Source of the DNA: Candidatus Micrarchaeota archaeon
Lineage (GTDB): Archaea > Micrarchaeota > Micrarchaeia > Anstonellales > Bilamarchaeaceae
DNA length: 64,000 bases
Direction: 5' to 3'
Assembly: GCA_964490215.1 (NCBI GenBank)
Contig: CAZBAM010000001.1
Coordinates: forward strand, 194,962 to 258,961
Below are positions 7,575 through 40,851 of the stretch, one piece after another. Below the pieces are notes generated by a model, which had not been told where the DNA came from, made no database searches, and saw nothing but the letters and a program-made list of their open reading frames with translations. Made by a program: the position numbers and the translations under genes. Position 1 is the first letter of the stretch; each line of letters opens with the position of its first letter.

Positions 7575-7701
7575 TGCCTCGGTAGCTCAGTCGGTAGAGC
7601 GGCTGACTGTTAGTCCGCCTTTTTAGTAAAAAGGCGGCCCAAAAACTGGCTTCCCAGTTTACAGCAATCAGCAGGCCGGATGTTCAAATCATCCCCGGGG
7701 C
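7575..7701 (+). tRNA. tRNA-Asn (anticodon GUU) with a ~54-nt intron at the canonical 37/38 position
   Basis: acceptor GCCTCGG/CCGGGGC (one G-U pair), D-arm GCTC-AGTCGGTA-GAGC, anticodon stem GCTGA/TCAGC, loop CTGTTA[intron]A, T-arm GGATG-TTCAAAT-CATCC, discriminator G; no CCA encoded. Confidence 0.75.
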
Positions 7702-7810
7702 GTTTTAATTCATCCTGTTTTGAGACGGTAAGGATAGTTAGTTCACCACGATTTATTCATTTATGCGATATATTGTAAAGACATATGTTCTAAAGTACAA
7801 ATAATCCAGA

Positions 7811-8404: not shown

Positions 8405-8626
8405 GACGGGTTATTTTTAGAAATCTTTGCATATTCCACATGCAATAATCCTACCAGAACCTGCATGGTTATGCGTGTATTGCGTATGAAAACGTAAAGT
8501 TAATAATGATAATAAGTAGTAAACTGTGTTAAAAAGATATAATTTATAAATGTATTCATACTAAGTTACTATGGGGTTGCTTCGAGGGCATGAGACTGCG
8601 GTCGATTAACCGGTAGGAGAGCCCCA

Positions 8627-9388: not shown

Positions 9389-9571
9389 TTTACACGGTAT
9401 TAAAAGAGAGATTTCAATTTAAATAATCTTCTACCATAATGCATAGTCGTAAGGAAGTGTCAATACAAAAGGCATATTTACGTCAGAAACCCTCGGTTCC
9501 CCGGGCGTTTTTGTTGATTGCCTTGAACCTCCCGCAGACCAGGCAGAATCGGAACGGACAGAAGTGAAAGC

Positions 9572-24589: not shown

Positions 24590-27112
24590 CTATCCGCCGT
24601 AAGGCACCTTGTTCGTGCCTCCGTTCGCAGTCGTCCATTTTCTCATCTTGTCCAGGCGCTTCCAGGAAGGGCAGAAGCTGTTCGGGCACTTGTCCCTCAG
24701 GTAATAGTAGGCAGCCATCCTTGACGCCCCGCGGTCCTTGTTCGCGTCGCTTTCGCAATTGCGGACATAATCAACGAAATCAGTGTAACCTTTGTAGCCG
24801 TAGCAGTTGTCAAGCTGGCCTGACACGCATCCTTTTCCATTCGGATTCTGGGCGCAGTAAGCGGCAGTCGTGCTCCAGCTTATGTAGTAATCCCCCACCC
24901 AGTTGTTCACGTCGCTGCCATCAGACGGCCAGGTGCCTGCGTAAAGGTTTGCGGCAATGTATGCTATGAACACCTGGTCCTTGTCAGTGCCTGCCTCCCA
25001 GTCCAGCAGGTTGACACCCCTGTCGTTATGGTATTTGCGGACTTTCTCCGCGGCAATGCGCATCTTCTCAGCGAGTTTCATCGTGCCCACGCACGCCGAG
25101 TCTGCCGCGTTGAATGGGTTGAATGACGTCGGATTGCATGCCTTTGCCAGGTCAAGCCTGATGTCCAGCCCGCGGCGCAGGGCGTCGTTGTATATCGCCA
25201 CGTGGGCCGGGTCGCCGGTCTTGCCGGCCGGCTGGTACGAGTCTGGCCAGTAGTCAATGGGCGGCTCAAGGCTCTGCATCAGGCCCAGGCCGCACCAGCG
25301 CCATGATGGCTGGCTGGTGCCTGAATTTGGCGCATTTGCCAGTGGGCACTGTGCCGCAGGGTCGCTCATGCTGTTGAAACCCGTGGAGTAGCATTCGTCA
25401 TTCGTGCTGTCGTCCGTGTCAAAGCATCCGGTGGTGCCTGGATTGGCTTTGCAGACCTTGGCTGCCTGGCAGGGCTTGAAATTGCTCTCTCCGGCGGCGA
25501 TTGCGCGCACGTAAGACGGGTCAAGGCTGAACTGGCTTGCGAAATAATCAAGCTCAGGGAAGCTGTCGCAGTATGTCAGGGGAACCGACGCCGTACCGAA
25601 TTTGAACGGCGGGTCGCCCAGCTTCTCTGATATGCACGCATCGCAGCGCACCAGGGTGTCGGTGGCCTTTTCCATCTCCGGCTGCCCAGGGCTGAGGAAG
25701 TCGTTGTCGGTGAATGACATCTGATTCACCTGGAATGCCGCGTTGAAGTTCTCATTGCAGGAGCCGGACGCCTGGTCCGGGAAGCGGATGAACGTTCCAG
25801 GCTGTGGTGATATGTCAGTGTCCTGCGCAGTATTGATGCTCTGCTCTGTGTAGGCCTGGCAGCCGCCGTACCACGAGCTTATGCGCTCGTTGTTCTTCCC
25901 GAGGGCGCAGTCAGTGCACGCGAGAGGGTTGCCGAGGCTGGACGCGGTGCTGGTGAAGGAGTATGGCGCGACGCCGATGACGCCTGCCTGCGGAAGGACC
26001 TGGGAATACGTGGCGATGAAGGCCGAATAGCCGTTAATGAGGCTGGACTCGTCCCAGGGGCAGGTGCCGCTGGCGTCGGTGCCGCCTGCGTCAAAAAGCA
26101 CGTATGGGATTATGGATGGCTTGCCGCCTTCCCTATGAAGCGCGTATTCCGAGAATTCCACTGCGGCGTTCCATGCCGAAGTCGGGTCGCAGGAACCGCT
26201 GAAGTCCAGGTAGCGGGAGTCTATGCCATATGCGATGAGGTCAACCTGCTTTGAGATGGCGCTCGGCTTGCAGCTGGCAGGGTCAGTGGGTTTCAGGTTG
26301 CATGCCGCGGGGTCATCTACCATGACCGCGTTGAGCGCATCGTAATCCCCGAGCTTCGGCGCGAGCGCGACCTGGCAGTATATTTTCGGCGGGTTGGTTG
26401 AGCGGTCGTTTCTGCACCCGGTGTTTATGGCTTCTATCTGCGCCTTCACCGCCTCGGCCTGGGAAACGTCGTAATTCATCTCGGTGGTGACGACTACGGG
26501 CCCCACGGGCTTGATGGTGAGCCTGCCCGTGGCCACGTCCTGGCCGCCTGTGCCGAGGACGTTGGCGATTTGCAGCGTCTGCGTGGCGTCTATGTTCTCA
26601 CCATCGCTGTAGAGGACATAGACAGGCATCACGCCCTTGTCAAGCAGGCAGACCGCCCTTGACGCGCTCGGAAGCGGGTAGGGCATGGTCTTGCTGCCCG
26701 CGAGCCATTGCACTGCCATGCCCAGGCGGGTGTTGCAGTAGCCGTTGGCGTCCCCGAAATCCGCGAACGACGGCCCCTGGCCCAGCCTGAAATAATTCAG
26801 GGTGAGGTCCTTGCCGTATCCGCCAGCTCCTATTGACTGGAACTTCTCCGGCTTGCAGTCCTTGTCAAAATAGCAGTAGCCGCCAACGTAGGAGGTCAGC
26901 CAGGGGAAGAACTCGGTGCCCTTCTTGCACACCATGCAGACGCAATTCGCCTCCAGGCAGTTCTGCGTCAGGGCTGAGTCCGATATGGGCACGTTCGCCA
27001 TCTGCTGCACGTAATCGTTGACGTAATACCTGCTGGAAGAGATGTGGTTGAGGCATCCTGCGGCAAGAAGGAACGCCAGCAATGTGATGACCGTCGCAGG
27101 GGCCGCCCTCAT
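24590..27112 (-). CDS. secreted Cys-rich 840-aa protein with a lytic-transglycosylase (SLT/lysozyme-like) domain
   Basis: signal peptide with lipobox-like LAAGC; residues ~515-655 carry YVRAIAAGESNF ... WCGLGLMQ ... AIYNDA (ES / GLMQ / A-YN SLT motifs); about 40 Cys. Confidence 0.5.
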   Translation of the reverse strand: MRAAPATVITLLAFLLAAGCLNHISSSRYYVNDYVQQMANVPISDSALTQNCLEANCVCMVCKKGTEFFPWLTSYVGGYCYFDKDCKPEKFQSIGAGGYGKDLTLNYFRLGQGPSFADFGDANGYCNTRLGMAVQWLAGSKTMPYPLPSASRAVCLLDKGVMPVYVLYSDGENIDATQTLQIANVLGTGGQDVATGRLTIKPVGPVVVTTEMNYDVSQAEAVKAQIEAINTGCRNDRSTNPPKIYCQVALAPKLGDYDALNAVMVDDPAACNLKPTDPASCKPSAISKQVDLIAYGIDSRYLDFSGSCDPTSAWNAAVEFSEYALHREGGKPSIIPYVLFDAGGTDASGTCPWDESSLINGYSAFIATYSQVLPQAGVIGVAPYSFTSTASSLGNPLACTDCALGKNNERISSWYGGCQAYTEQSINTAQDTDISPQPGTFIRFPDQASGSCNENFNAAFQVNQMSFTDNDFLSPGQPEMEKATDTLVRCDACISEKLGDPPFKFGTASVPLTYCDSFPELDYFASQFSLDPSYVRAIAAGESNFKPCQAAKVCKANPGTTGCFDTDDSTNDECYSTGFNSMSDPAAQCPLANAPNSGTSQPSWRWCGLGLMQSLEPPIDYWPDSYQPAGKTGDPAHVAIYNDALRRGLDIRLDLAKACNPTSFNPFNAADSACVGTMKLAEKMRIAAEKVRKYHNDRGVNLLDWEAGTDKDQVFIAYIAANLYAGTWPSDGSDVNNWVGDYYISWSTTAAYCAQNPNGKGCVSGQLDNCYGYKGYTDFVDYVRNCESDANKDRGASRMAAYYYLRDKCPNSFCPSWKRLDKMRKWTTANGGTNKVPYGG

Positions 27113-27135
27113 GATGTGTATTGGTTAGGAAACGG

Positions 27136-27143
27136 ATAAAAAA
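27136..27143 (-). promoter_or_regulatory. TATA box (TTTTTTAT on minus strand) at -31..-24 of the 840-aa gene ATG; implies a leaderless transcript
   Basis: A/T octamer at the canonical archaeal distance from the start codon. Confidence 0.4.
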
Positions 27144-27161
27144 GCACGGGTTGCGACAGCT

Positions 27162-27208
27162 GGTTCCCCCGTGCCGGTTCACGGAGGCATTTCTTATGGG
27201 ATTTCTAC
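27162..27208 (+). repeat. 47-nt exact repeat GGTTCCCCCGTGCCGGTTCACGGAGGCATTTCTTATGGGATTTCTAC, copy 1 (hairpin CCGTG-N6-CACGG)
   Basis: identical to 35497..35543; lies 3' of the giant minus-strand gene after a T-rich tract. Confidence 0.9.
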
Positions 27209-27262
27209 TAATCCAAAGAATGAATCAAAATGAATCAGAAGAAAGGCAAAAGAAAGAAGTCG

Positions 27263-30200
27263 CTACTGGACCCGCCCGCACTTCCTGCACCTGCTGCCGC
27301 GATAGTTGGAAGTGCCGCAGCAGTAGGTGGTGCGGGCCAGCATCTGCGGCTGGACGGCCCTCGTCACTGACCTGCCGATGTTTTCCACGGTCGTCTGGAG
27401 CCTCTGCGTGAAGCTTGTTGAGCCACCGGTCTTGGACCTTGCCAGGTAGCCGGACACGATGTCCTTCGTGGACGGGCCTCCCATCGGGAAGCCGTGCCAC
27501 AGCGGCATCAGCGGGTTGAGCAGGCTGAACATCTGGTTCTGCATTATGCCGAAGCTGTAAAGCTCCTGGTTCCGCCTCATTGCGAGCGCTTCGGCGCCCA
27601 CGGTCCGGTTCACGGTGTTGGTGAATGCCGCCGCGCGTATGCGCTCGTCGTACATGAAAGCGCCCTCGTTCATGCGGAAGGCGTATTCCGCGGCCTTGAC
27701 CGTGGGATTAAGCACATGGCGGTAGTCGTAATCGCTGATGCCGGGGTTGGCCTCGTCCGTCCTCGCACTGGAATACACGCCCTTCCTCGTCAGGTAGATG
27801 TCCTGGGGCCCCTGGAGGAGTCCCTTGGTGAAGTCACGGCCTGCAAGCTGGTGCTTCTCAAGGCTGCCTCCGTAGACGTTAAGGCCGGCCAGCCGGTCCC
27901 AGGTCTTGCCTGAGAACCACTTGAACGAGAACGGGTTCACGGACTGCATTGCTTCCCTTATGCGGGGCTGGGTGTAGTTCCACTGCGCGAGCGCGTTCCC
28001 GGTGGAATCCCACTTGGACGCGTAGCCCTGCATGGACATCTGCAGGCCCCTCATCATGGAGGTGTAGGGCCTCATGATCTTGCCTGCCAGGTCCAGCGGG
28101 AAGCCGTAGAACGCCATGAAGTTGGTGTACTGGCCCCGGTCCATGAACGCCCTCAGGTTGTCTTTGATGTCGTATACCTGGGCCGGGCCGAAGTGGAAGA
28201 ACGAGCCCCACGCCTGGTGGGCGCCGAAGGACGTTGACGTTCCCCACGGGTTCCTGTCTATTATATAGTCCCACGCCTGGTGGTAGCCGAAGTGCGTCAT
28301 GGCGTATGCGCGGGCCGCTGTGCGCTGGTCCGGGGTCATGCCCTTCAGGGCCTCGCCCGAGAGTATGGACTGGGCGTTGTGCCAGGACTGCTGCCTCTGC
28401 ATCTCGCTCAGCGGCGCGATGTCGTAGGCTGCCTGGTGGACCCCGCGGTCCATGCCTCCTGCGGCCAGTGCGACTGTGGAAACGTAGTCGCCGAGGTGCA
28501 GGCCGATGTCCCTCCACGGCCTCAGGAACGTGGAAAGCCCGGGCGAGTCCACGCCGAAGAACCTCAGCATGGACGGCGCCACAGGGGCGGTCTGCCTCTT
28601 GGACTGGACGGAAACCGCGCTCTCGTTCCAGAACTTTGTGTAGTCCCACGTGGTGGTGGCGTACTGCCAGAGGACCGCTGCGAACACCTTCTCCTTGCCG
28701 TAGTTGTATCCGCCTGCCTTGGTGTCGTTCTTGGCAGCTTCCAGGAACGCTTTCCAGGCCTCGGGGTCCTTTGACGACGCTATGCGCTCAAACTCGCGCT
28801 GGAGCGCATCGCTGCTGAACTTGATTGTGACGTCCTCGGGCCTGAACGGCCTGAGCTGGCCCTTGTCGTCGCGCAGCGCCACGTCCCCGGCCAGAACGCG
28901 GTCCAGGTCGCTGAGCATCATGCCCTTGTGGTAATAGGCAAGCCCGCCTTCGTGGAGCATAACCATGGCTTTGTCGGACCTGACGAGGTCGTTGTAGGTC
29001 ACGGGCCTGGCCTGGCCGTTGCTGTCAAAGAGCCGCCCCTCCAGCTCACGCTTGTACCTGCCCATCAGCTTGTTTAGCTCTGCCTGTGCCGAAGGGTCGC
29101 TCACGTTCATCTTCTGCAGGAAGACCAGGTCAGGGTGGTTGGCCTCCATGCCCTTTTCCAGCAGGGCCTTTTCCAGCACGCCGGCCAGCACTCCGCCGTA
29201 GAACCTCGCGGTCTCGCGGGTGGTGCCGCCGTAGCAGTTCTGGCCGAACTGTGAATTGAAGCGGTTCTGCAGGTCCTGGGTCATAAGTTTCTCAGTAAGG
29301 AGCTCTTTTGCCATCCTGGTCCTCTGCTCATTGGACCATTGGGCGGAGCCGGGCATGCGGTCAAGCTGTGCCTCTATCCCTGCGTCGTAGTAAGGAACGT
29401 AGCTCTTGGTGAACCTGGACTGAACCCACTGCCCCAGGGCGAAGTTCTCCCTGGCGTCAAGGGAGGTTATCCAGTGCCTCTTGACGTCAACGATGGTGGC
29501 CTCCTTCGGCAGGCCGAGTTCGCTCTTCGGACCCCATATCATCTGGCCGGTCTTCTTGTCGTACATGTGCTGCCCGTCTTTGTCAGCTCTCAGCTCGGCA
29601 CCGGGCTGGCTCGTGACGCCTCCGTACATGAAGCCCACTATCTCGGCCATGGAAGCTGCACCCATGCCCTTGCCCATTGCCTTCTGGAAACCGGCCCTGC
29701 CCTCCTCTGTGAACAGCGATATCATGTCTGCCTTGTTCCTGGCAGCCAGTGCCTCAAGCTCTGCCTTGTTCTGCATGAACTCCGGCAGCTGGGACATGCT
29801 CATCTGGCCGGTCTTCGGGTCCACGTAGACCGGGTCAAGCCCGACGCACCGGTTTGACATGTTCAGGCGGAAGGATACAAGCCAGTCCTGCACGCCGCCG
29901 CGGCCGTAGCCGTGCTCGCAGTCCCATATCATGGTGCCGAATATCATGGTCCTGGCCAGGTGGCTGCCCTCAAGCGATTCCGTGCCCACGTTGCAGACGT
30001 AGGCGTCGGCGCCGTGCTTGCCGCTCAGCGTCGCCATGCGCGCGCGGTTTTCCTCGTTCAGCACTGTCTGCACCATGCCCATTTTCAGGTATTCCGGCTT
30101 GGCGTCGTGCTCTATGCCCTCCAGCCTCTGCGTTATGGCAAGCGCCTGCCTGTCTATGTGGGCGCCGTGGGATTCCATCAGCGCAGCCAGCCTCCGTATC

Positions 30201-32116
30201 TTCTCCGGCTGGCTGAGGCTCTTGTTGGACAGTATTTCCTTTGCCGCTGCCCCCACTGCCCTTACTGCCGCAGGGTCTGCCGTGTTGAGGCCGCAGCGCC
30301 TTAGTATGTCAACGTTCTTGTACCCCAGTTCCATGAGCTCCTTGTGGGTGAAGTCAGTCCTTACGCCCACGGCCTTGAAGCCCTGCTGGAGGATGTATTC
30401 CTGCACGTCGCGGTAGTGCGCGTTGAGGGTGATCTTGTACTGCGCTGCCAGCTTCTGGGTTATGGGGTACATGGTTCCTATCTTTATGTCGCCAGGGTGC
30501 TGCCCCATCTTCGTTGAGAGCCATGCGCCGGCTGCAGTGGACTTGAAGCTTGAGGCAGCTGCATTGAGGTTCAGCGCCATCCGCTCGGCAGCCCTCTTGC
30601 CGCCTATCATCCCGGCAGTGGTCGTCGCCACCTGGCCCGCGACAATCGGCGCGCCCCGGATTGCGGCCTTTGTGCCACGCGCGCCAACCTGCCAGCTCCT
30701 CACGAGCGATGCCGCGCCAGAGGTCACCACCGGGCCGACTATGGCGTACCTGTTGACGTTCATCATGGGCTGGAGCGCCTTGTCTATCCCGGACATTATC
30801 GCGCTCCTCTTGCCGATTTCAGCGTGGCCGGTTATCGCCTCAAGGCTCTGGTGGACCCTCGCGTCCATCACGTAGCCCTTCATGACGCTGGCCATCGTGG
30901 CGTGCTTGCCGCCAAGCGCCTGCGCCTTGTTGAATATCTCGGAAATTATCTTGTGCTCCTCGTTGCCGTAGCTATAGACGCTTTTCCTGGCGAGTTTTTC
31001 CAGGTCTGAGGTGCTTGCGCCGGTCTTCTGGCCGAGCGAGAGAGCGCCTTTGGCGACTTCCTTGTCGCCTGGCGTCATGCTTTTCCAGTTCATCAGCCTG
31101 TTGAAGCCTGCAGTGGAAGGGCCGCCCTGGGCGAGCTTGCGTATGAAAGCACCACCCGCCGTCAGTTTCTTCAGGTTGGCTCCCTTCAGCTCGCTCCAGC
31201 CGAAGGGCATCAGCACCTGGCCGCCTGCCGCCACGCCTTTCGGTGCGGGAAGCCTCGGCGTGGTTATGTCAAGCAGGGAAACCGGGGACTTGCCTGTGAA
31301 GTAGAGCGATGCGAGAAGCAGGCCGAGTATGAGGAACACTCCGACGCAGGGGAGCGTGGCGCCATTGGCCGTATAGCCAGGGGCCTGTGCTATGCCTGCC
31401 ATCAGGTCGCCGAGCTTCCTCGTGAGGGCCTGGGCGGCGCTGCTCGGCGGGTTCCTTATGACGTAGTCGTAAGTGGCTGCCTGGGCGGTTTCTTCCTTGC
31501 CGTTTATCGTGACCTGGGCCGGCAGGGACACTGCCTTTATCTCGGTCGTCGGCTGGCCCTCGCGGAGGGACTTGGGAATCTTGCACTGGGCTATGTAATA
31601 GTCAATCGGAATCGGGATGGAAGTCCCGGACGGCATATTACCGGTCTTCTTTATGTCCGCTGTCAGGCCGGCGCAGCCGTCCACCGGGGCGTAAGTACCT
31701 GACGCCAGCCTATACATGAACGTAATCTTGGCGTTCTGGATAGCCACGAACGTGGGGTTCTGGGTCGGTGATGTGCCGAACCGCTGCATGCTCCGGGCAT
31801 ACAGGCACCCCTGCAGGTCGTTGGCGTAGGCCGGGTCGGCCTTGCACTCGGCCAGCAGCTTCCTCACGGCCTCGCTCTTGGTCTCCCCGCTGGCACTCAC
31901 CGCAGGCTCAAATGCGAACGCTGTGGCGGTCAGGATGCAGTCCTTTGCCGGGTCCACGCAGCCGTAGGCGTCTGCCGGCGTCACCACCAGCTGGGTGAAC
32001 GCCTGCGACTGCTCGCCGAGCATGCCGCCTGCCGGGCCTGGCGTGCTAACCGCGAAGAGCGCGGCTGCCATGAAGAGGAAGACGAATGCCCCGAACACGT
32101 TCTTCAACGATATCAT
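27263..32116 (-). CDS. giant (1617-aa) secreted/membrane-anchored protein of unknown function
   Basis: N-terminal signal peptide (FVFLFMAAALFAVS), hydrophobic helix near residue 265 (LPCVGVFLILGLLLASLYF), Cys-rich C-terminus; TATA TTTATAAA at -33..-26 of the ATG; uninterrupted ORF. Confidence 0.75.
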   Translation of the reverse strand: MISLKNVFGAFVFLFMAAALFAVSTPGPAGGMLGEQSQAFTQLVVTPADAYGCVDPAKDCILTATAFAFEPAVSASGETKSEAVRKLLAECKADPAYANDLQGCLYARSMQRFGTSPTQNPTFVAIQNAKITFMYRLASGTYAPVDGCAGLTADIKKTGNMPSGTSIPIPIDYYIAQCKIPKSLREGQPTTEIKAVSLPAQVTINGKEETAQAATYDYVIRNPPSSAAQALTRKLGDLMAGIAQAPGYTANGATLPCVGVFLILGLLLASLYFTGKSPVSLLDITTPRLPAPKGVAAGGQVLMPFGWSELKGANLKKLTAGGAFIRKLAQGGPSTAGFNRLMNWKSMTPGDKEVAKGALSLGQKTGASTSDLEKLARKSVYSYGNEEHKIISEIFNKAQALGGKHATMASVMKGYVMDARVHQSLEAITGHAEIGKRSAIMSGIDKALQPMMNVNRYAIVGPVVTSGAASLVRSWQVGARGTKAAIRGAPIVAGQVATTTAGMIGGKRAAERMALNLNAAASSFKSTAAGAWLSTKMGQHPGDIKIGTMYPITQKLAAQYKITLNAHYRDVQEYILQQGFKAVGVRTDFTHKELMELGYKNVDILRRCGLNTADPAAVRAVGAAAKEILSNKSLSQPEKIRRLAALMESHGAHIDRQALAITQRLEGIEHDAKPEYLKMGMVQTVLNEENRARMATLSGKHGADAYVCNVGTESLEGSHLARTMIFGTMIWDCEHGYGRGGVQDWLVSFRLNMSNRCVGLDPVYVDPKTGQMSMSQLPEFMQNKAELEALAARNKADMISLFTEEGRAGFQKAMGKGMGAASMAEIVGFMYGGVTSQPGAELRADKDGQHMYDKKTGQMIWGPKSELGLPKEATIVDVKRHWITSLDARENFALGQWVQSRFTKSYVPYYDAGIEAQLDRMPGSAQWSNEQRTRMAKELLTEKLMTQDLQNRFNSQFGQNCYGGTTRETARFYGGVLAGVLEKALLEKGMEANHPDLVFLQKMNVSDPSAQAELNKLMGRYKRELEGRLFDSNGQARPVTYNDLVRSDKAMVMLHEGGLAYYHKGMMLSDLDRVLAGDVALRDDKGQLRPFRPEDVTIKFSSDALQREFERIASSKDPEAWKAFLEAAKNDTKAGGYNYGKEKVFAAVLWQYATTTWDYTKFWNESAVSVQSKRQTAPVAPSMLRFFGVDSPGLSTFLRPWRDIGLHLGDYVSTVALAAGGMDRGVHQAAYDIAPLSEMQRQQSWHNAQSILSGEALKGMTPDQRTAARAYAMTHFGYHQAWDYIIDRNPWGTSTSFGAHQAWGSFFHFGPAQVYDIKDNLRAFMDRGQYTNFMAFYGFPLDLAGKIMRPYTSMMRGLQMSMQGYASKWDSTGNALAQWNYTQPRIREAMQSVNPFSFKWFSGKTWDRLAGLNVYGGSLEKHQLAGRDFTKGLLQGPQDIYLTRKGVYSSARTDEANPGISDYDYRHVLNPTVKAAEYAFRMNEGAFMYDERIRAAAFTNTVNRTVGAEALAMRRNQELYSFGIMQNQMFSLLNPLMPLWHGFPMGGPSTKDIVSGYLARSKTGGSTSFTQRLQTTVENIGRSVTRAVQPQMLARTTYCCGTSNYRGSRCRKCGRVQ

Positions 32117-32138
32117 GATATAGACGCGTGTCCGGCGC

Positions 32139-32261
32139 TTTATAAATGTTTATGTTCACAAGGGATATGAAAACTACAAAAACTACAAAAGTTGTAGTTT
32201 AATGTTATAGAAAATAGACGATAGCGAGGTGTATGGTATTGGCGAGGCGCATGGTATTGGC
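32139..32261. promoter_or_regulatory. divergent control region: TATA TTTATAAA (32139-32146), 2x AAACTACAA direct repeat plus 9-bp palindrome AAACTACAA-aag-TTGTAGTTT (32171-32200), 2x ATGGTATTGGC (32233-32261)
   Basis: AT-rich intergenic stretch between the giant gene (-) and the Arch_ATPase gene (+) carrying an operator-like inverted repeat and direct repeats. Confidence 0.45.
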
Positions 32262-32317
32262 TGGGCGCAGGATAAGGGGTGGCAGGGCATGAGACGGCAG
32301 GACAAGGGGTGCGTGGC

Positions 32318-33409
32318 ATGAAGGGGCCGAACCCGTTCGCCTTCCTTGAGGACAACCCAGGGGAAGCGGTCGGAAGGAAATACGAATCAGGGGTGTTTGA
32401 CGCCATGGCGCGGGCGTGCTCGGCAAGGCAGCCGCGGGTGCTGGCAGTCCATGGCGGCCCTGGCACAGGCAAGACCTTCCTGCTGCGCTACTTCAGGCGC
32501 GAGGCAGAGGGGATGGGCATGCTGGCGCCCTATGCAAAGGCCGAGGAGGGCGAGGATGCGGCCGACGTGGCCGGCAGGCTATACCAGGAAACCGCGTCGC
32601 TGCTGGAATTCCGCACGCAGGGAGCAGGTGCACACCCTGGCACCTTTGCCGGACTCGTGGAATCGCTTGGGAAGGGCGGCCAGGGGAAGTATTTCGGCAC
32701 CCTCGTGTTCATAGACGACTTTGACGACGTCAGGAAGGCTGACGAGGCAGCGGCGGAGCTGGTGCGGCTCGCAGCCTCGCTGGAAGGCAGGAGGGCGGTG
32801 GGCTTCGTCCTGGCGTACACGAGGGAGCTGCGGCTTCCCGAAAGCCCGGCCCTTGGCGTCCTCAGGCTCAAGCCCTTTGACGAGCACGACGCCAGGGAGG
32901 CCATAGACAAGGCGCTGGGCGCAGGACCCGGGCCTGGCAAGGGGCCGAAGATGGGCGAGGAGTGCCTCCACAGCGTGATGACGGACACCGGCGGGAACCC
33001 CCGCCTGCTGAAGGCGGTCTGCAGGCACGTCTATGACAGGCTGAAGGACAACGAGAAGATAATAAACAAGGGCCATTACCTCGCCTACCTGCCGTACATA
33101 ATGAACATGCTATCCGGCGAATGGTTCGGCAGGATGTACCAGGCGACGCCTGAGGCTGAGCGGAGGATTCTCGCGGTCATGGCAGGAAACAGCGAGGGGA
33201 TGCACGTGTCGGACATCGCCAGGACGCTCGGCAGGCCGCTCGGCCCCACGACCGCGCTGGTCGGAAGGCTCCTGGACAGGGGGCAGATAACGAGGCTGGA
33301 CAGGGGAAAATACAGGATTTTCGCAGGGCTATACGCGCGCTATGTATTGCAGAGGGGCGAGGGGCGGGCGGAGGAAAAATCCGCGGGCTCCGCGCAGAAA
33401 CGGCGCTGA
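32318..33409 (+). CDS. archaeal-type AAA ATPase (Arch_ATPase/PF01637-like) with a C-terminal wHTH (DUF234-like)
   Basis: Walker A VHGGPGTGKTFLL, Walker B LVFIDDFDDV, C-terminal GKYRIFAGLYARYV; alternative GTG start at 32279. Confidence 0.65.
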   Translation: MKGPNPFAFLEDNPGEAVGRKYESGVFDAMARACSARQPRVLAVHGGPGTGKTFLLRYFRREAEGMGMLAPYAKAEEGEDAADVAGRLYQETASLLEFRTQGAGAHPGTFAGLVESLGKGGQGKYFGTLVFIDDFDDVRKADEAAAELVRLAASLEGRRAVGFVLAYTRELRLPESPALGVLRLKPFDEHDAREAIDKALGAGPGPGKGPKMGEECLHSVMTDTGGNPRLLKAVCRHVYDRLKDNEKIINKGHYLAYLPYIMNMLSGEWFGRMYQATPEAERRILAVMAGNSEGMHVSDIARTLGRPLGPTTALVGRLLDRGQITRLDRGKYRIFAGLYARYVLQRGEGRAEEKSAGSAQKRR

Positions 33410-33430
33410 ATGACAGGCAGGAAAAACCGG

Positions 33431-33949
33431 TCAGGAAGCGAGCCGCCAGTCCTTTTCAAAAACAGAGCTGAACGCAGCGACAGTGGCCGCGTCCCTGATG
33501 ATGACCGAGGCCTCGCGGTTGTCGTATAACGCAGCGCCTGAGAAGTTGTGCGAGCCGACCAGGACAGCCCTGCCGTCGGCGATGACGAACTTGGCGTGGG
33601 TCAGGGCGTATTTCGCCGTGGCGTACCGGACGTTGATTCCGTCCGACGCGAGCTGGCCGTAGGCGTCCTGGTTCTGGTTCTCCATCACGTTCCGCTCCAG
33701 AATGACGCGCACATCTACTCCGCGCGCCTTTGCCCGCTTCAGCGCTGCCAGGGCTTCGTGCGAGGTGAATACGTACATTTCCACGTCCAGCGAGCTTTGC
33801 GCAGAATCAATGAGCGACAGGATTTCAGGCCCGCCGCCTGGCGAGAAAACGGGCGTTATCACAGGCGGGAACAATGCAGGAGCGGCAAGCGTGCAGATGG
33901 CGATGCCGAATAATACTCCTAGCACGAACCTGCCCATCCCCCAGAGCAT
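33431..33949 (-). CDS. secreted phospholipase-D-family (Nuc-like) nuclease
   Basis: N-terminal signal/TM; HKD motif HAKFVIADGRAVLVGSHNFS; 172 aa. Confidence 0.75.
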   Translation of the reverse strand: MLWGMGRFVLGVLFGIAICTLAAPALFPPVITPVFSPGGGPEILSLIDSAQSSLDVEMYVFTSHEALAALKRAKARGVDVRVILERNVMENQNQDAYGQLASDGINVRYATAKYALTHAKFVIADGRAVLVGSHNFSGAALYDNREASVIIRDAATVAAFSSVFEKDWRLAS

Positions 33950-34081
33950 ACTGACGGATTGCAGACGAAATTATAAAACCCTTTCCTGCGGCGTGCCGCG
34001 CGTCTTTCGGACGGTCTGAATTGTTCAGAACTCAAGAGTTACTATCTTGCCCCGATGACCGTTCGGGAACCCCATCCGGCG

Positions 34082-34426
34082 CTATCGGTCATATTTACCA
34101 AGAATAGTTCTGACAGCCGTTTCAAGGGCAGGCAGCTTGTTGGTCACAACATCCCAGACAATCGCCATATCCACAGCCGAGTATTCGTGGACGAGAATGT
34201 CCCGTAAGCCGGATATTTTCTTCCATTTGATATCCTGGTGCTGCTTTTTGATTTCAGCCGGTACGCATTTTGCGGCTTCACCGATGATGAGGAGATTTCG
34301 TATCACTGCATCGGATACGAGGCTGTTCCCGGCGAACGCTTCAAAGTCCATGCCTTCTGAGTATTTGCGTATTTTGCCTGCCGCTTCAAGGATATCCTCC
34401 AGATAAACCCTATAGTCCTTGGACAT
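34082..34426 (-). CDS. hepT: HepT-like (DUF86, HEPN) toxin
   Basis: DUF86 sequence with conserved RNLLIIGEAAK...ILVHEY region; overlaps the cognate MNT gene. Confidence 0.75.
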   Translation of the reverse strand: MSKDYRVYLEDILEAAGKIRKYSEGMDFEAFAGNSLVSDAVIRNLLIIGEAAKCVPAEIKKQHQDIKWKKISGLRDILVHEYSAVDMAIVWDVVTNKLPALETAVRTILGKYDR

Positions 34427-34718
34427 AAAGCGCCTCTTCTTTTACATATCTGAGAGCAGGTTTCAGGCTGTTTTCCATCACCAGATCCACTTTCCTGTGG
34501 AATAGGCGTTCAAGGAAGAATTTCAGATCCATGTAGTTGTCAAACGTCGCCATTCTGAAAGAAACGAGGAAATCCAGGTCGCTGCCCTTCTTTTCCGTGC
34601 CTTTGAGGACCGAGCCGAAAAGCCCTATCTGCTCAACCCCGTATTGCCTTATCTCCTCCCTGTGCTCTTCAAGCGTCTGCACTATTCTGTTTGGAGTAAG
34701 TACCAGCACGCGCTTCAT
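34410..34718 (-). CDS. mntA: MNT nucleotidyltransferase antitoxin (type VII TA partner of HepT)
   Basis: GLFGSVLKGTEKKGSDLDFLV minimal nucleotidyltransferase motif; ATG at 34716-34718 (MKRVLVL...). Confidence 0.75.
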   Translation of the reverse strand: MKRVLVLTPNRIVQTLEEHREEIRQYGVEQIGLFGSVLKGTEKKGSDLDFLVSFRMATFDNYMDLKFFLERLFHRKVDLVMENSLKPALRYVKEEALYVQGL

Positions 34719-34866
34719 GGATGATGATTGCCCTTTAGGCATTAAAAAAGGCTCTGATTTCGTAATTATCACCAGTCCAGGAATTGGAAACATGCAAGGT
34801 TCTCCAGCTGGTAGAGCCGGGCCGTCTTCCCCGGACGTATGGCCCTGTCAAGCTTAATGCACGAAG

Positions 34867-35047
34867 TTCATTCAGAACTCAATCGCTAGCTATGCTGGCG
34901 AGCAGTTCTGATGAGCGAAGCGATTCAGAACTCAAGATCCGCCGGCTGATGCCGCCAGCTCTCGAGTTCTTCATTTCATTCAGAACTCAATCGCCAGCAA
35001 GGCTGGCGAGCAGTTCTGATGAGCGAAGCGATTCAGAACTCAAGATC
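34867..35047 (+). repeat. two direct copies of a 73-nt unit spaced 108 nt apart (TTCATTCAGAACTCAATCGC...GAGCAGTTCTGATGAGCGAAGCGATTCAGAACTCAAGATC); a partial third copy (TTCAGAACTCAAGAG) at 34024-34038 on the other side of the HepT/MNT pair
   Basis: near-identical copies at 34867-34939 and 34975-35047; the 96-aa ORF over them is an artefact. Confidence 0.8.
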
Positions 35048-35306
35048 TCAGTCATCGCGCCGAAGCGCTCGTAGGTATTGCATTGTCATCATTATGGAAC
35101 TGATTCTCAATACGCCCTTTTAATTTGAGCGATGCAAGGGAAAGACCGGGATGATGACTGTTCGACAGACCGAGGACGCAAGCCCGATGAGGTATACATC
35201 ACGTCTGACCGCAAATAAGATAAAAATAAGGGCTCTGTAGAAAAGCTCAGGCCCTTGCCGGGCTAGTCTTATTTTTGACCCATAGACGCCCTTTGGGCAC
35301 AGGACC

Positions 35307-35483
35307 CACAACAATCCAGGGTGCGCGGGAGCCCATGCTTTCAAATAGGGGCGGAGCGCACCCGACTCGGCTTGCGGGCTCCCGCCTAAAGCCACTTCCG
35401 CAAGCCAAGGGCTTTCTAGCGACCGGTTCGCCGGTCGCTGGAATCCAGGGAGCAAAGCTCCCTAGATTAGCCCTGGATTGTTG
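35307..35483 (+). repeat. 177-nt multi-hairpin palindromic element (outer stem CACAACAATCCAGGG/CCCTGGATTGTTG enclosing three internal hairpins); MITE-like and related to the region upstream of tnpB
   Basis: 35410-35467 is the reverse complement of 41128-41185 (58 nt); nested inverted repeats GCGGGAGCCC/GGGCTCCCGC, AGCGACCGG-ttcg-CCGGTCGCT and AGGGAGC-aaag-GCTCCCT. Confidence 0.6.
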
Positions 35484-35496
35484 ACCATCTGCGGAC

Positions 35497-35543
35497 GGTT
35501 CCCCCGTGCCGGTTCACGGAGGCATTTCTTATGGGATTTCTAC
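35497..35543 (+). repeat. 47-nt exact repeat, copy 2 (identical to 27162..27208)
   Basis: exact match; lies 3' of the TFB gene after a T-rich tract. Confidence 0.9.
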
Positions 35544-35564
35544 AAAGCAAAATAAGGAAAAAAA

Positions 35565-36479
35565 TCAGAGGTTTACCTTCAGCCCGAGTTCCTTCTTCAG
35601 CTCGCGGTAGCGGTTGCGTATCGTGACTTCGGTCACGCCGGCGACGTCAGCGACCTCCTTCTGCGTCTTCTTCTCGCCGTGCATCGCGCTGGTTATGTAG
35701 AGCGCGGCAGCGGCCACGCCTGTCGGGCCCCTGCCTGATATCAGGCCCTTCTTCAGCGCCTTCCTTATGAGCTTTATGGCCTCCTCCTGGACCTCGCCGC
35801 CGAGCTTCAGCGCGGTGGCGAACTTCGGCACGTATTGCGCCGGGTCAGTGAGCGGCACGTCTATGCGCAGCTCTGACTTCAGGAAGCGGTACGCGCGGCC
35901 TATCTCCTTCTTCTCTATGCCCGACGCGCGCGAGATTTCGTCCAGCGTCCTTGGTATGCCCTGGATGCGGCAGATGCCATAGACGACAGCGGCGACGACG
36001 CTCTCAATGAGCCTGCCGCGTATGAGTTCCTCCTTTACCGCCCTGCGGTAAAGCAGCGCTGCGCTCTCCTTTATGTTCTCCGGAAGGCCGAGCGAGGACG
36101 CGACGCGGTCAAGTTCCGCGAGCGCGATGACGAGGTTCCTTTCCATGGACGTGGCGATGGACACGCGCTTGTGCCATTTCCTCATGCGGTAGAGCTGGGC
36201 CTGCTTCTTCGGGCTTATCTTGCCGCCGCGTATGTCCCTGTTGTACTGGTCTATCTCGGTGACGAGGCCCTTGTTCGGCCTCATGTATTTTATCGGCGCG
36301 CCGCCGCGGGCCTTCTTCTCCTTCTGCTCCGCGTCAAACGCGCGCCATTCCGGGCCGAGGTCCTGTATGTTCTCAGCGACGATGAGGCCGCAGTTGGCGC
36401 ACAGGAGTTCCCCCTTCTCATAATCCCTTACGAGCCTCTTGCTTTTGCACTCTGGACACTTTGTAGCCGTAGACTCCAT
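35565..36479 (-). CDS. tfb: transcription initiation factor IIB (TFB)
   Basis: N-terminal zinc ribbon CPECKS...CANCG plus two cyclin-fold repeats; ATG at 36477-36479 (MESTATKCPEC); the ORF-track TTG extension was discarded. Confidence 0.9.
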   Translation of the reverse strand: MESTATKCPECKSKRLVRDYEKGELLCANCGLIVAENIQDLGPEWRAFDAEQKEKKARGGAPIKYMRPNKGLVTEIDQYNRDIRGGKISPKKQAQLYRMRKWHKRVSIATSMERNLVIALAELDRVASSLGLPENIKESAALLYRRAVKEELIRGRLIESVVAAVVYGICRIQGIPRTLDEISRASGIEKKEIGRAYRFLKSELRIDVPLTDPAQYVPKFATALKLGGEVQEEAIKLIRKALKKGLISGRGPTGVAAAALYITSAMHGEKKTQKEVADVAGVTEVTIRNRYRELKKELGLKVNL

Positions 36480-39687: not shown

Positions 39688-40851
39688 CTACCCACGCCTG
39701 AAGGCGTTGGCTTCCTGCTTCAACGAAGATACTTGCCAGTTATGTTTATAACCAGTAGTGGTTTCTTCTCCACAGGCGTTACTTCCCAGCGTTCCGCCGG
39801 TAGCTCGTTGGAGTATATTTATCGCCGCATTGAGATCCCTGTGCATGGATGCTCCGCAGGGGCAGTCATGCCACCTCTCAGCAAGCGATTTCTTCAGTAC
39901 CAGACCGCAGTTGCTGCACCTCTGCGAGGTGTGGGCCGGATCCACCAGCACGATTTCGCAACCAGCTTCTTCCGCTTTGTAACGAATCATACTGACAAAC
40001 TCTGCCCAACTGCAATCCAGCACGGATTTTGCAAGTAAACCTTTTGCCAGACCGGCAACATTCAGGTTTTCCAGTGCAAGAAAAGAATATGCGCTAACCA
40101 GCCGTCTGCTGGTTTTATGGAGGAAATCACGTCTTCTGTTTGTGAGCCGTTCATAGGCAATTGCAACCCGATGTTTTGCCTTCTGCCTGTTTTTGCTGCC
40201 CTTCTTTTTTCGTGAGAGATGCTGCTGGGTTTCCTTCAGGCACTCTTCTGCCTGCCTGAGATGCCGGGGATTTTCTATGACCTCGCCGTCGCTGAGGCAG
40301 GCAAAGTGCTCCACGCCGAGGTCTAATCCCGCCTCAGGGCCAGTTTTTCTGCAAGGTGCAATCCGTTCCGCTTCAGTAGTGAAAACGGTGAACCACTTCC
40401 CTGAAGGAGATCTTTTGATCGTCAGTGTTTTGACTTCTCCTTGCATTTGCCGGTGCTTCTTGATTGAAATACTTCCTATGCCTGAAAGCTCAAGGCGTTT
40501 GTCCAGCCTGAAACCGAACTGGGGGTAAGTGAATGATTTCATCCGTTCAAGTGGTTTGAAGCGCGGAAACCCGGCCTTCAAGCCTGCCTTCTTTCTGGCA
40601 ATCACGCCCCTGAGGCTTTTTACCAGCCGATCTGCGACGTTCTGGGCTACCTGTGAAAAAAGAGGAGTGTCTTTCGTCTGGAGATAAAGCTGTTTTCTGG
40701 TTGGAAACTTGCTGGTTTCTTCATAATATTTTTTCGTGTATTCCAGAAGGCGGTTCCAGAGCGTTTTGCATTCGTGGAGGCATCCGGACAACTCCCTTTG
40801 CTGGGTTTTTGACGGGTACAGTCGGAACTTCCAGGCCCTTGTTGTCTTCAT
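39688..40851 (-). CDS. tnpB: IS200/IS605-family TnpB (OrfB) RNA-guided nuclease
   Basis: RuvC-like motifs (LDLGVEHFA, ...) and C-terminal zinc finger CSNCG...CPCG; 387 aa. Confidence 0.9.
   Translation of the reverse strand: MKTTRAWKFRLYPSKTQQRELSGCLHECKTLWNRLLEYTKKYYEETSKFPTRKQLYLQTKDTPLFSQVAQNVADRLVKSLRGVIARKKAGLKAGFPRFKPLERMKSFTYPQFGFRLDKRLELSGIGSISIKKHRQMQGEVKTLTIKRSPSGKWFTVFTTEAERIAPCRKTGPEAGLDLGVEHFACLSDGEVIENPRHLRQAEECLKETQQHLSRKKKGSKNRQKAKHRVAIAYERLTNRRRDFLHKTSRRLVSAYSFLALENLNVAGLAKGLLAKSVLDCSWAEFVSMIRYKAEEAGCEIVLVDPAHTSQRCSNCGLVLKKSLAERWHDCPCGASMHRDLNAAINILQRATGGTLGSNACGEETTTGYKHNWQVSSLKQEANAFRRG

Follow-up and report, generated by a model that had tools for sequence, protein, structure and literature searches.

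We analysed a window of 64,000 nucleotides, which is part of a chromosome belonging to Micrarchaeota (DPANN). An initial annotation of this DNA listed six genes, and an ORF check found all of them at the coordinates given there (Table 1). The locus is centered on a giant protein of 1617 aa. An 840-aa protein is encoded downstream of it, and an AAA+ ATPase is encoded divergently. Genes for a PLD-family protein and a HepT/MNT toxin-antitoxin pair follow. Genes for FGAM synthase and phosphoglycerate kinase (PGK) are also present in the window, as is a TnpB gene near the module. The cluster has no pilin or secretion-ATPase genes, according to the gene tables of the window and related loci.

Table 1. 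Coordinates of features at the locus (residues refer to the protein concerned)
Feature	Position	Strand	Residues	Evidence or remark
840-aa protein gene	24590-27112	-		ORF
Divergent SLT (GH23)-like domain	24923-25555	-	~520-730	homologues and motifs
Clan GH-A-like (beta/alpha)8 TIM barrel	25823-26815	-	~100-430
Repeat copy 1, 68 nt (47 exact)	27162-27229			between giant stop codon and 840-aa gene promoter
Giant protein gene, 1617 aa	27263-32116	-		ORF
Giant, C-terminal 4-Cys zinc ribbon		-	~1597-1617	CC...CxxC tail
Giant, predicted cytoplasmic body, about 1,300-1,340 aa		-	after TM	mostly alpha-helical
Giant, TM helix and juxtamembrane segment	31187-31366	-	~251-310	highest conservation in protein
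Giant, ectodomain		-	~30-250	6 Cys, 4 conserved
Giant, N-terminal signal or anchor		-	1-29	hydrophobic segment
Divergent control region, giant/ATPase	32117-32317			TATA and repeats
AAA+ ATPase ORF, 376 aa from GTG at 32279	32279-33409	+		ORF
AAA+ ATPase	32318-33409	+		AAA_16/AAA_22, C-terminal winged helix; GTG at 32279 is alternative start
Single-HKD PLD-family protein, 172 aa	33431-33949	-		ORF; PLDc_2 7e-31 (Pfam)
HepT/MNT pair, 17-nt overlap	34082-34793	-		Pfam
HepT gene, 114 aa	34082-34426	-		ORF
MNT gene, 127 aa	34410-34793	-		ORF
Repeat copy 2	35497-35564			directly after TFB stop codon

The giant and 840-aa genes had been described as each having its own TATA box. We indeed found TATA-like boxes 22-23 nt upstream of the two ATGs (TTTATAAA, at 32139-32146, and TTTTTTAT, respectively). 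The divergent region is also as rich in potential operators as had been noted: it contains two copies of AAACTACAA and an inverted copy, which make up the palindromic AAACTACAA/TTGTAGTTT set at 32171-32200, and two more direct-repeat pairs (18-nt and 15-nt, each present twice). The AAA+ wHTH protein probably acts on this palindrome-rich, shared promoter region.

Conservation of the locus in Micrarchaeota

We compared the window with 56 related loci. The order in which the ATPase gene diverges from the giant gene, which is followed by a gene for a Cys-rich protein of ~850 aa, is kept in these loci. The ATPase gene is adjacent to and divergent from the giant gene in 53 of the 56, and a homologue of the 840-aa protein is encoded directly downstream of the giant in 51 (median gap, 81 nt). 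The cluster usually lies between TFB and topoisomerase VI; two loci (L002 and L003) have other flanks and still keep the core. The constant core consists of three genes, encoding the giant, the Cys-rich lipoprotein and the AAA+ ATPase with a winged helix.

Full-length homologues of the giant (n=63) are 26-87% identical, and those with a given source name are all from Micrarchaeota, Micrarchaeia, "ainarchaeum" or Bilamarchaeum. Each of 52 species-representative genomes has one locus. As far as this sampling shows, the module is specific to Micrarchaeota. In the related loci, identity is 26-53% for the giant and 25-53% for the 840-like proteins, compared with 69-92% for Top6A and 88-100% for TFB, so the two module proteins evolve fast relative to their neighbours.

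The initial annotation proposed that the giant gene, the toxin-antitoxin pair and everything between them had moved as a unit, bracketed by a 47-nt exact direct repeat at 27162 and 35497. The repeat is real (0 chance matches are expected) and lengthens to 68 nt at 90% identity. Copy 1 includes a hairpin of 8 bp that follows a T-rich tract on the minus strand, and copy 2 lies at the 5′ end of a non-coding stretch with strong structure. This repeat, together with the toxin-antitoxin pair and the nearby TnpB gene, would suit a mobile island. However, the 56 related loci have the same gene order, with giants at the identities just given, and none carries the 47-mer, which is also absent from JGI metagenome contigs. 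There is no integrase in the window, and the GC content of the module equals that of its flanks. Moreover, one copy of the 47-mer stands between the gene for the giant and that for its constant downstream partner, so the repeat cannot mark the edges of a unit. The 47-mer is an intergenic element that was duplicated locally rather than an island boundary, the cluster is vertically inherited core DNA, and we give a mobile island almost no credence.

The HepT/MNT genes are a genuine toxin-antitoxin pair flanked by repeats, as annotated, but they do not belong to the module. Pfam matches are strong (HepT-like, 1.9e-30; NTP_transf_2, 2.3e-13) and the motifs RX4HXY (RDILVHEY) and GSX10DXD are readable. 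Copies of TTCAGAACTCAAGA occur on either side (one at 34024 and four at 34871-35045), and GC content around the pair is 0.53-0.55, versus ~0.61 in the module. The pair is present in 0 of the 56 related loci, and is an unrelated, window-specific insertion at a variable spot.

Features of the encoded proteins

The giant has no Pfam match and no recognised family or fold, in agreement with the initial annotation, which could not name a family. Its N-terminal hydrophobic segment, one internal TM helix (at about residues 255-275) and Cys-containing C-terminal tail had been reported and were all seen. However, it is not a "secreted" protein in the sense then proposed. Because of its topology (two hydrophobic segments, with net positive charge after the second) and the distribution of its cysteines, it is predicted to be a bitopic membrane protein with about 83% of its length in the cytoplasm. 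Family members have 4-8 Cys in the ~230-aa ectodomain versus 4-10 in the remaining ~1,330 aa, where four sit in a terminal CxxC...CxxC. The ectodomain is probably disulfide-bonded. It is the least conserved part of the protein, with column conservation of 0.33-0.42 versus 0.67-0.77 for the TM/juxtamembrane segment. An almost invariant motif in this segment, GKSPxSLLDITTPRLPAPKG..GGQ (residues ~255-310), retrieved 52 Micrarchaeota loci when used alone as a query.

The 840-aa protein, which contains 36 Cys, is an extracellular lipoprotein whose N-terminus is lipobox-like (LLAAGC). In it, a clan GH-A TIM barrel is joined to a divergent SLT domain. Based on its sequence and an AF2 model (pLDDT 86, pTM 0.86), both domains are glycosidase-like, and their catalytic activity is putative. 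The barrel has an invariant E211 at the end of beta4 and, after beta7, D341, which is at least 90% conserved. The SLT-like domain has an ES motif (542-543), a ~60-aa Cys-rich insert, GLMQ (610-613) and a degenerate third motif, in that order. The earlier description as a lysozyme-like, SLT-domain exoprotein had missed the large barrel, and its SLT part holds via homologues and motifs, since Pfam gives no match for the window protein itself, which is below the SLT threshold. Pfam SLT is matched by 15 of 36 family members (best 1.1e-5), and bit scores are 25.4 for P0111 and 33.3 for P0118, versus a curated cut-off of 21.3. Over the SLT region, P0118 and the window protein give a colinear alignment (E 4e-30). 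The ES motif of the family profile aligns to EtgA/EmtA (E 0.06-0.6), and in structural comparisons no match to lytic transglycosylases reaches significance (E 0.18-0.5). P0118 is a paralogue that has both SLT and Peptidase_M23 domains, and its gene adjoins a type-IV-pilus-like locus. These features connect the hydrolase family with surface appendages and with substrates of the murein type.

In the ATPase, the Walker A (GGPGTGKT) and Walker B (VFIDD) motifs are intact. The 376-aa protein has AAA_16/AAA_22 and weak wHTH matches in Pfam, and its homologues match Arch_ATPase (PF01637). It also has weak BrxC_BrxD and MkoC matches, and no match to PDB sequences or to Orc1/Cdc6 models. All orthologues (n=113) are ~325-380 aa long, and nearly all those with a named source are from Micrarchaeota.

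The PLD protein is a frequent, not universal, neighbour of the module: its gene adjoins the module in 38 of 56 loci (tblastn) and is missing from about a third. Its HKD motif (HAKFVIAD) is intact and an N-terminal hydrophobic segment is present, as annotated. Related loci have 34 HxK(x)4D ORFs, at least one of which is probably spurious, and the N-terminus is hydrophobic in 32. The closest PDB entries are Nuc (1byr, 3e-15), MitoPLD/Zucchini and NucT. Matches of the protein to PLD family models are generic to the superfamily, with scores under NCBIfam equivalog cut-offs.

Similarity to known systems

Large extracellular SLT-domain proteins (fam00969) occur in Woesearchaeota and Pacearchaeota (Castelle et al. 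2021, PMC8204110; Vigneron et al. 2022, PMC9723730). Like the lipoprotein, they are lineage-specific DPANN proteins with an extracellular lytic-transglycosylase-like domain, and binding or degradation of a partner's wall was proposed for them. By contrast, the SLT-like domain of the module is highly divergent, has the Cys-rich insert and is fused to a GH-A barrel in a ~850-aa lipoprotein, in fixed synteny with genes for a giant membrane protein and an AAA+ wHTH protein. The domain also resembles EtgA, VirB1 and EmtA, in that the ES region aligns and the gene is part of a larger envelope-spanning set, but E-values are marginal and secretion-system genes are absent from the cluster.

Compared with clan GH-A enzymes (GH5 mannanases/cellulases, GH26 and GH53) and GH5-like phage depolymerases, the barrel has 7-13% identity, no Pfam family match, many extra disulfide cysteines and Asp instead of Glu at beta7. 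The PLD protein resembles Nuc, NucT and MitoPLD-Zucchini in its size (about 170 aa), single HKD and N-terminal signal or anchor. It differs in scoring below the equivalog cut-offs, and its candidate substrates are nucleic acid or phospholipid.

FtsEX (with EnvC, PcsB, RipC or CwlO) exerts transmembrane control over extracellular cell-wall hydrolases. As a functional analogy only, the module likewise groups genes for an ATPase in the cytoplasm, a membrane protein that has an ectodomain, and a hydrolase outside the cell. However, it has no sequence or fold relationship to FtsEX, its wHTH-containing ATPase looks like a regulator, its bitopic membrane protein has a cytoplasmic body of 1,340 aa, and the coupling of its parts is putative.

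Possible functions

The most likely function is that of a glycan-cleaving, cell-contact apparatus at the surface, anchored by the giant, to which we assign a probability of roughly 45%. We infer that the giant and lipoprotein are physically coupled, what kind of substrate is cut, and that the apparatus acts in cell-cell contact. The giant would anchor or organise the lipoprotein within the narrow gap below the S-layer, linking it to the cytoplasm. The lipoprotein might cut glycan chains on a cell that serves as partner or prey, or surrounding envelope polymers, which could permit contact by membranes or appendages. The PLD enzyme may break down released nucleic acid or phospholipid, and the ATPase-wHTH protein would govern expression. 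The beta7 Asp counts against this reading, as do the sub-threshold SLT score of the window protein, its non-significant structural similarity to lytic transglycosylases and the lack, to our knowledge, of murein in the best-studied Micrarchaeota hosts. A universal single copy beside TFB and topoisomerase VI would be just as expected if the module served the cell's own envelope.

Such a housekeeping role, in which the lipoprotein trims or remodels the cell's own S-layer glycans or another envelope polymer during growth and division, and the giant is a positioning scaffold like those of the divisome or elongasome that control extracellular hydrolases, is an alternative that we consider rather less likely. 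It would fit the position and near-universality of the single-copy module, its flank-like GC content and the glycosylated S-layer of Micrarchaeota, which encloses a 20-25 nm pseudoperiplasm (doi 10.1101/2021.04.28.441871). However, the giant and lipoprotein diverge much faster than their housekeeping neighbours, SLT and GH5-like domains are elsewhere tied to foreign polymers (phage depolymerases; DPANN SLT proteins, PMC8204110), and the M23 peptidase domain of the paralogue is suggestive of murein.

The proteins could also serve nucleic-acid uptake or transfer, with the SLT enzyme opening the wall (a role likened to VirB1 or EtgA), the Nuc-like nuclease processing DNA, and the giant and ATPase as conduit or motor. 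Nuc, presumably encoded by the conjugative plasmid pKM101, is the closest solved PLD relative, NucT also matches, the best SLT profile alignment is to the secretion-system-associated EtgA, and the ATPase gene adjoins that of the giant. This role is improbable given that the ATPase is not an FtsK/VirD4/VirB4/HerA-type translocase, that the giant lacks a channel-like polytopic domain, having one TM helix beyond its signal segment, that many loci have no PLD gene, and that pilin and secretion-ATPase genes are missing. Still less probable is anti-virus defence by a DrmC-like PLD nuclease, a STAND-like or BREX-like ATPase, a giant effector and the toxin-antitoxin pair. PADLOC matches the PLD protein with DrmC-type models (3e-19) and MNT with PDC-S09, and the BrxC_BrxD and MkoC matches point the same way, but those to PLD are superfamily-generic, and the giant, 840-aa protein and ATPase had no meaningful PADLOC match. 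Moreover, this module is universal and syntenic, unlike defence loci, which are mobile and patchily distributed; its partner protein is extracellular, and HepT/MNT is an unrelated insertion.

The initial annotation saw in these proteins the toolkit of an archaeon that feeds on, or attaches to, other cells. Feeding is a speculative reading, and murein is a putative substrate of the divergent SLT domain. Some Micrarchaeota orders have been suggested to be metabolically fairly complete (PMC12892359), and together with the FGAM synthase and PGK genes in the window, this implies that scavenging need not be essential. The literature that we searched contains no description, for Micrarchaeota, of such an SLT/GH-A lipoprotein in synteny with a giant membrane protein and an AAA+ wHTH protein. 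The uncharacterised cell-envelope module that had been proposed is real, and comprises a giant protein, a glycan-hydrolase-like surface protein, a divergent Arch_ATPase-type AAA+ wHTH protein and an anchored, Nuc-like PLD protein.

Conservation of the module in Micrarchaeota

We found that the genes for the giant 1617-aa protein, the 840-aa protein and the ATPase form a module that is core and syntenic, and that evolves much faster than its housekeeping neighbours. The PLD gene is a frequent neighbour of this module. All six ORFs named in the initial annotation, which also include a HepT/MNT pair, are present (table below). The giant protein has 63 full-length homologues, nearly all of 1565-1646 aa, with identities of 26-87% and no Pfam domain in any of them. 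All source names given for these homologues are Candidatus Micrarchaeota, Micrarchaeia, 'ainarchaeum' or Bilamarchaeum, and the window is therefore derived from a Micrarchaeota (DPANN) chromosome.

In the gene tables of five homologous loci, a PLDc_2 gene, a divergent AAA_16/22 ATPase gene, the giant gene and a gene for an unannotated protein of ~840-920 aa occur in the same order, and HepT/MNT is present in none of the five. The module arrangement is kept in the loci L002 and L003, in which the flanking genes differ. A scan of one genome per GTDB species yielded 52 loci, with a single locus in each record; the labels are Micrarchaeota, Micrarchaeia, Bilamarchaeaceae, 'ainarchaeum', 'archaeon' or 'uncultured archaeon'. 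The invariant transmembrane/juxtamembrane motif of the giant protein by itself retrieved these 52 species-level genomes. The module is also a useful lineage marker.

We compared the window proteins to 56 loci by tblastn. A divergent ATPase gene lies upstream of the giant gene in 53 of them, and an 840-like protein is encoded downstream on the same strand in 51; the misses fall mostly at the ends of contigs or in the two loci that diverge most. PLD is adjacent to the module in 38/56 loci, Top6A is nearby in 39/56 and TFB in 25/56. Neither HepT nor MNT was detected in any of the 56. Identities to the window proteins in the same loci are 69-92% for Top6A and 88-100% for TFB, far above those of the giant (26-53%) and the 840-like protein (25-53%), which is why we regard the module as the faster-evolving part. 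It is present in every related genome sampled, with a fixed gene order. These observations show a vertically inherited module of fixed architecture, and it appears to be restricted to Micrarchaeota.

Some lineages (the group of loci L049, L050, L041, L048 and L056) have longer giants of 1720-1980 aa with insertions. L055 and L056 have diverged so far that the tblastn alignment of the giant is confined to its transmembrane and juxtamembrane region, yet Top6A and an 840-like gene are again found behind it.

The neighbours in the window are housekeeping genes: topoisomerase VI B and A, a KH-domain protein, TFB, an amidohydrolase, CorA, PGK, topoisomerase I, ArgRS and FGAM synthase. Between CorA and PGK is a TnpB / IS605 OrfB-type gene with OrfB_IS605, Cas12f1-like TNB and HTH domains; the corresponding position lacks TnpB in the related loci L001 and L004. 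A low-GC stretch (0.41 vs ~0.60 elsewhere) contains a DUF3800 gene and ORFs without family matches, and may be an integrated element. It is bordered by an intron-containing tRNA (57 bits in Rfam) that ARAGORN missed. A second lower-GC stretch carries a PIN_2 gene beside an HTH_7 gene, probably another toxin-antitoxin-like cassette. A 1289-aa protein with LamG, GDSL-lipase and NosD/beta-helix domains, encoded in a region of strong GC skew, is a probable further large surface protein.

Positions of the features discussed, in the window and in related loci
Feature	Sequence	Position	Strand
Intron-containing tRNA	window	7576-7702	+
Low-GC stretch	window	7000-10000	
DUF3800 gene	window	8627-9388	
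840-aa protein	window	24590-27112	-
47-mer, copy 1	window	27162	
Giant protein (1617 aa)	window	27263-32116	-
ATPase with wHTH (376 aa)	window	32279/32318-33409	+
PLD protein (172 aa)	window	33431-33949	-
TTCAGAACTCAAGA, one copy	window	34024-34037	
HepT (114 aa)/MNT (127 aa)	window	34082-34793	-
TTCAGAACTCAAGA, four copies	window	34871-35045, within 34867-35047	
Structured non-coding stretch	window	35075-35570	-
111-aa ORF	window	35120-35455	
C/D-box-sRNA-like sequence	window	35147-35210	+
47-mer, copy 2	window	35497	
TnpB / IS605 OrfB-type gene	window	39688-40851	-
Second lower-GC stretch	window	52-55 kb	
PIN_2 and HTH_7 genes	window	53585-54347	+
1289-aa protein	window	59224-63093	-
Gene with sigma-70 region 2/4 matches	L003	5898-6767	
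Two unannotated ORFs in place of PLD	L035	1500-4850	
P0201 and neighbouring small genes	L057	4290-6239	
P0118	L058	7026-9839	

Predicted properties of the module proteins

The giant protein had been described as secreted and exposed at the surface, and this does not agree with its hydropathy and composition. It has an N-terminal hydrophobic segment (residues 1-29) and one transmembrane helix (residues ~255-275), and the region between the two contains six cysteines, of which four are conserved. Beside the membrane, the other ~1,340 residues carry a net positive charge, which predicts that they lie on the cytoplasmic side. This large part is poor in cysteine, with nine in the window and 4-10 (0.3-0.7%) across 49 unique loci, and four of these form a terminal C(P)xC...CxxC tail resembling a zinc ribbon. 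The extracellular 840-aa family, by contrast, has 29-42 cysteines. Judging from sequence features, the best reading is that the giant is not secreted, and is instead bitopic, with a cytoplasmic body that makes up most of the chain and a small ectodomain that is probably disulfide-bonded. Conservation is highest in the transmembrane helix and the ~35 residues after it (GKSPxSLLDITTPRLPAPKG..GGQ), which include many invariant positions; the ectodomain is poorly conserved.

The earlier statement that no family could be named for this protein holds. Sequence profiles from Pfam, NCBIfam, PADLOC, PHROGs and the PDB do not match it, and no solved fold matched the 1,200 residues that could be modelled confidently. 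A full HMMER search of 1.84 billion cluster representatives with a profile of residues 440-1617 (alignment of 19 rows) found only 121 proteins, almost all of which are either 1,400-2,000-aa proteins, matched at the corresponding relative position, or pieces of them. In a few proteins of 120-250 aa, the match is limited to one beta-rich subdomain (residues ~1030-1140). Pfam scans of remote family members and of these small homologues gave nothing except a weak zinc ribbon. The invariant polar residues show no evident catalytic motif. Given this and the 121 matches, we regard the giant as a narrowly distributed family whose fold and function are not recognizable. The stand-alone subdomain proteins are P0191-P0196, P0201 and P0204, and the sole named source (for P0201) is a Micrarchaeota genome, in which the gene belongs to an uninformative row of five small unannotated genes.

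The 840-aa protein begins with a lipobox-like LLAAGC sequence and contains 36 cysteines. Nearly all of its 55 homologues are 720-960 aa long. Pfam does not match this protein or the giant. Its AlphaFold2 model (pLDDT 86, pTM 0.86) contains a predicted TIM barrel of the clan GH-A type, and the identity of this barrel to its structural matches is 7-13%. An invariant glutamate, E211, is located at the end of the strand 206-211 (beta4). The beta7 strand (333-339) is followed by D341, conserved in at least 90% of sequences, and not by a Glu as in the nucleophile of clan GH-A. Neither Pfam nor NCBIfam assigns the barrel to a named GH family.

The C-terminal half resembles SLT domains. It has the SLT/GH23-type motifs ESNFKP, with the predicted catalytic Glu, and GLGLMQ, in which the ES (E542/S543) and GLMQ are separated by a Cys-rich insert of ~60 aa, and E542, S543 and Q613 are each conserved in at least 90% of sequences. 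The third motif is degenerate in the window protein (AANLYAG) compared with the AYNAGPG of P0118. With the family profile, the ES motif can be aligned to EtgA and EmtA at marginal E-values. Pfam SLT (PF01464) matches 15 of 36 family members at E<=0.1, and two exceed the curated cut-off of 21.3 bits, namely P0111 (25.4 bits) and P0118 (33.3 bits, covering model positions 6-111 of 117). In this region, the window protein and P0118 can be aligned colinearly (E 4e-30). Thus, the SLT exoprotein of the initial annotation is supported by motifs and transitive homology, but not by a direct match of the SLT model to the window protein at E<=0.01. A BFVD structure search intended to expose the SLT fold was dominated by GH5-like barrels, and the matches to LT_GEWL proteins and the PRD1 transglycosylase were not significant. 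P0118 itself is a distant paralogue, in another Micrarchaeia MAG, that combines SLT with a C-terminal Peptidase_M23 and is encoded directly downstream of a type-IV-pilus-like locus with T2SSE and two T2SSF genes.

We also considered whether the giant or the 840-aa protein could be an S-layer protein. The known Micrarchaeum S-layer protein belongs to PF05123 and has almost no sulfur-containing residues (doi 10.1101/2021.04.28.441871). This rules out the 840-aa protein, with its many cysteines, and neither protein matches in Pfam; the giant is moreover predicted to be mostly cytoplasmic.

The ATPase matches Pfam AAA_16/AAA_22 and, weakly, winged-helix models, as had been proposed. Its Walker A (GGPGTGKT), Walker B (VFIDD) and C-terminal wHTH are conserved in orthologues, and the orthogroup comprises 113 proteins, nearly all of ~325-380 aa, the named ones being almost all from Micrarchaeota. 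The AAA+wHTH gene, which is next to topoisomerase VI, and the repeat-rich intergenic region raised the idea of an Orc1/Cdc6 protein at a replication origin. We rejected this idea, as NCBIfam Orc1/Cdc6 models and PDB sequences do not match, and Pfam ORC-CDC6-like reaches 16 bits vs a cut-off of 27. The 200-nt region between the divergent genes is indeed rich in potential operators, with a palindromic AAACTACAA/TTGTAGTTT set and two further direct-repeat pairs. The position of the ATPase gene across this palindrome-rich promoter region suggests that its product regulates the operon. The giant and 840-aa genes each have their own TATA-like box, 22-23 nt upstream of the ATG, a distance consistent with leaderless transcripts.

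The PLD protein was correctly placed in the PLD/Nuc family. It matches PLDc_2 (7e-31, 107 bits vs a cut-off of 27) and has a single, intact HKD motif (HAKFVIAD), as in Nuc. Its closest relatives in the PDB are Nuc (1byr, 3e-15), MitoPLD/Zucchini and NucT. Nucleases (Nuc, NucT, Zucchini, PLD3) are among its PDB matches, together with a phospholipase and a cardiolipin hydrolase, and its scores are under the NCBIfam equivalog cut-offs. Among 34 module-linked ORFs with HxK(x)4D, at least one of which is probably spurious, 32 have a hydrophobic N-terminus.

The direct repeat and the variable interval

The 47-nt exact direct repeat is real and not expected by chance, and its two copies extend to 68 nt at 90% identity. 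In the initial annotation, it was taken to bound a block that moved as a unit, and conserved synteny without the repeat was named as the observation that would count against this. The 56 related loci display just that: the module is conserved across them, and all lack the 47-mer core. The repeat was also not found in JGI metagenome contigs. Copy 1 lies between the giant stop codon and the promoter of the 840-aa gene, so a repeat-bounded unit would split the two most tightly linked genes of the module. A search for an integrase found none anywhere in the window, and the TnpB gene is 4 kb outside the block. The GC content of 0.60-0.62 is the same inside and outside, with a decrease only near the toxin-antitoxin pair. 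We therefore reject a mobile island bounded by direct repeats.

Both copies of the repeat are directly downstream of a minus-strand stop codon, contain an 8-bp hairpin and are preceded by a T-rich tract; a tRNA fragment was ruled out. In our reading, the 47-mer is an intergenic element that was duplicated locally and would be a terminator or 3'-end element, or else the 5' end of an RNA. Copy 2 opens a non-coding stretch of ~490 nt downstream of TFB with several perfect hairpins and a folding energy of -202.6 kcal/mol (z = -5.6 vs shuffled controls). This stretch matches no Rfam family and could be an undescribed structured RNA. A 111-aa ORF within it has no family match and may not be a gene. 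On the opposite strand lies a sequence that resembles a C/D box sRNA, with GAUGAUGA as its C box and CUGA at its terminus; it scores 21.7 bits with Rfam sR15, under the gathering score of 40.

The interval from TFB to the ATPase gene is a variable spot. It contains PLD in most genomes and PLD with HepT/MNT in the window; in L035, two unannotated ORFs of 399 and 550 aa take the place of PLD. A gene with sigma-70 region 2/4 matches is located between PLD and the ATPase gene in L003.

The HepT/MNT pair is confirmed by Pfam HepT-like (1.9e-30) and NTP_transf_2 (2.3e-13). Its adjacent genes overlap by 17 nt, and the RX4HXY motif of HepT (RDILVHEY) and the GSX10DXD motif of MNT (GSVLKGTEKKGSDLD) are present, as expected of a type VII toxin-antitoxin system. 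The flanking repeats that had been noted are copies of a 14-nt sequence, TTCAGAACTCAAGA. These copies bracket the cassette, which fits an independent small insertion. Four copies lie within a pair of 73-nt direct repeats, which are 96% identical and also include an inverted repeat.

Possible roles of the module

The module combines a giant protein that is mostly cytoplasmic by prediction, a lipoprotein in which two domains resemble glycosidases, an ATPase-wHTH protein and, in many loci, an anchored PLD protein. The enzyme domains are novel versions of known types, and the giant is without known relatives. A role in cell-cell interaction is the reading we favour, at a probability of about 0.45. 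In such a role, the giant would anchor or organize the lipoprotein at the membrane and couple it to the cytoplasm, the lipoprotein would cleave glycans, either those of another cell or those of envelope polymers, the PLD protein would process released nucleic acid or lipid, and the ATPase-wHTH protein would control expression. This reading is favoured by the rapid divergence of the giant and the lipoprotein, by the poorly conserved ectodomain, and by resemblances to phage depolymerases and to the large SLT proteins known from other DPANN archaea, namely Woesearchaeota and Pacearchaeota (PMC8204110, PMC9723730). The main rival is that the module remodels the glycosylated S-layer or envelope of the organism itself. 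Its universal position in the genome, like that of a housekeeping gene, fits this function equally well, and we consider it somewhat unlikely overall. Nucleic acid uptake or transfer and anti-virus defence are both much less likely.

A bolder and rather doubtful idea is that the giant joins the AAA+wHTH ATPase and the lipoprotein with its two glycosidase domains in an unrecognized trans-membrane machine that arose in Micrarchaeota. A cytoplasmic module of 1,340 aa with a new fold, tethered by the invariant transmembrane/juxtamembrane segment, would then control extracellular glycan cleavage from inside. Alternatively, it could be a symbiont-side docking platform for contact with a partner cell or for a nanotube connection. 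In the literature searched, we found no description of the Micrarchaeota triad or the giant family.

Little is understood of the molecular basis on which DPANN archaea recognize other cells, attach to them and exchange material with them, and most of their lineage-specific proteins lack annotation. The module is a concrete, testable candidate for cell contact in Micrarchaeota, in which a giant protein is paired with an enzyme of two recognizable glycan-cleaving domains. If the giant links the cytoplasm with glycan cleavage at the surface or with contact between cells, it would represent both a new protein family and a new mechanism.
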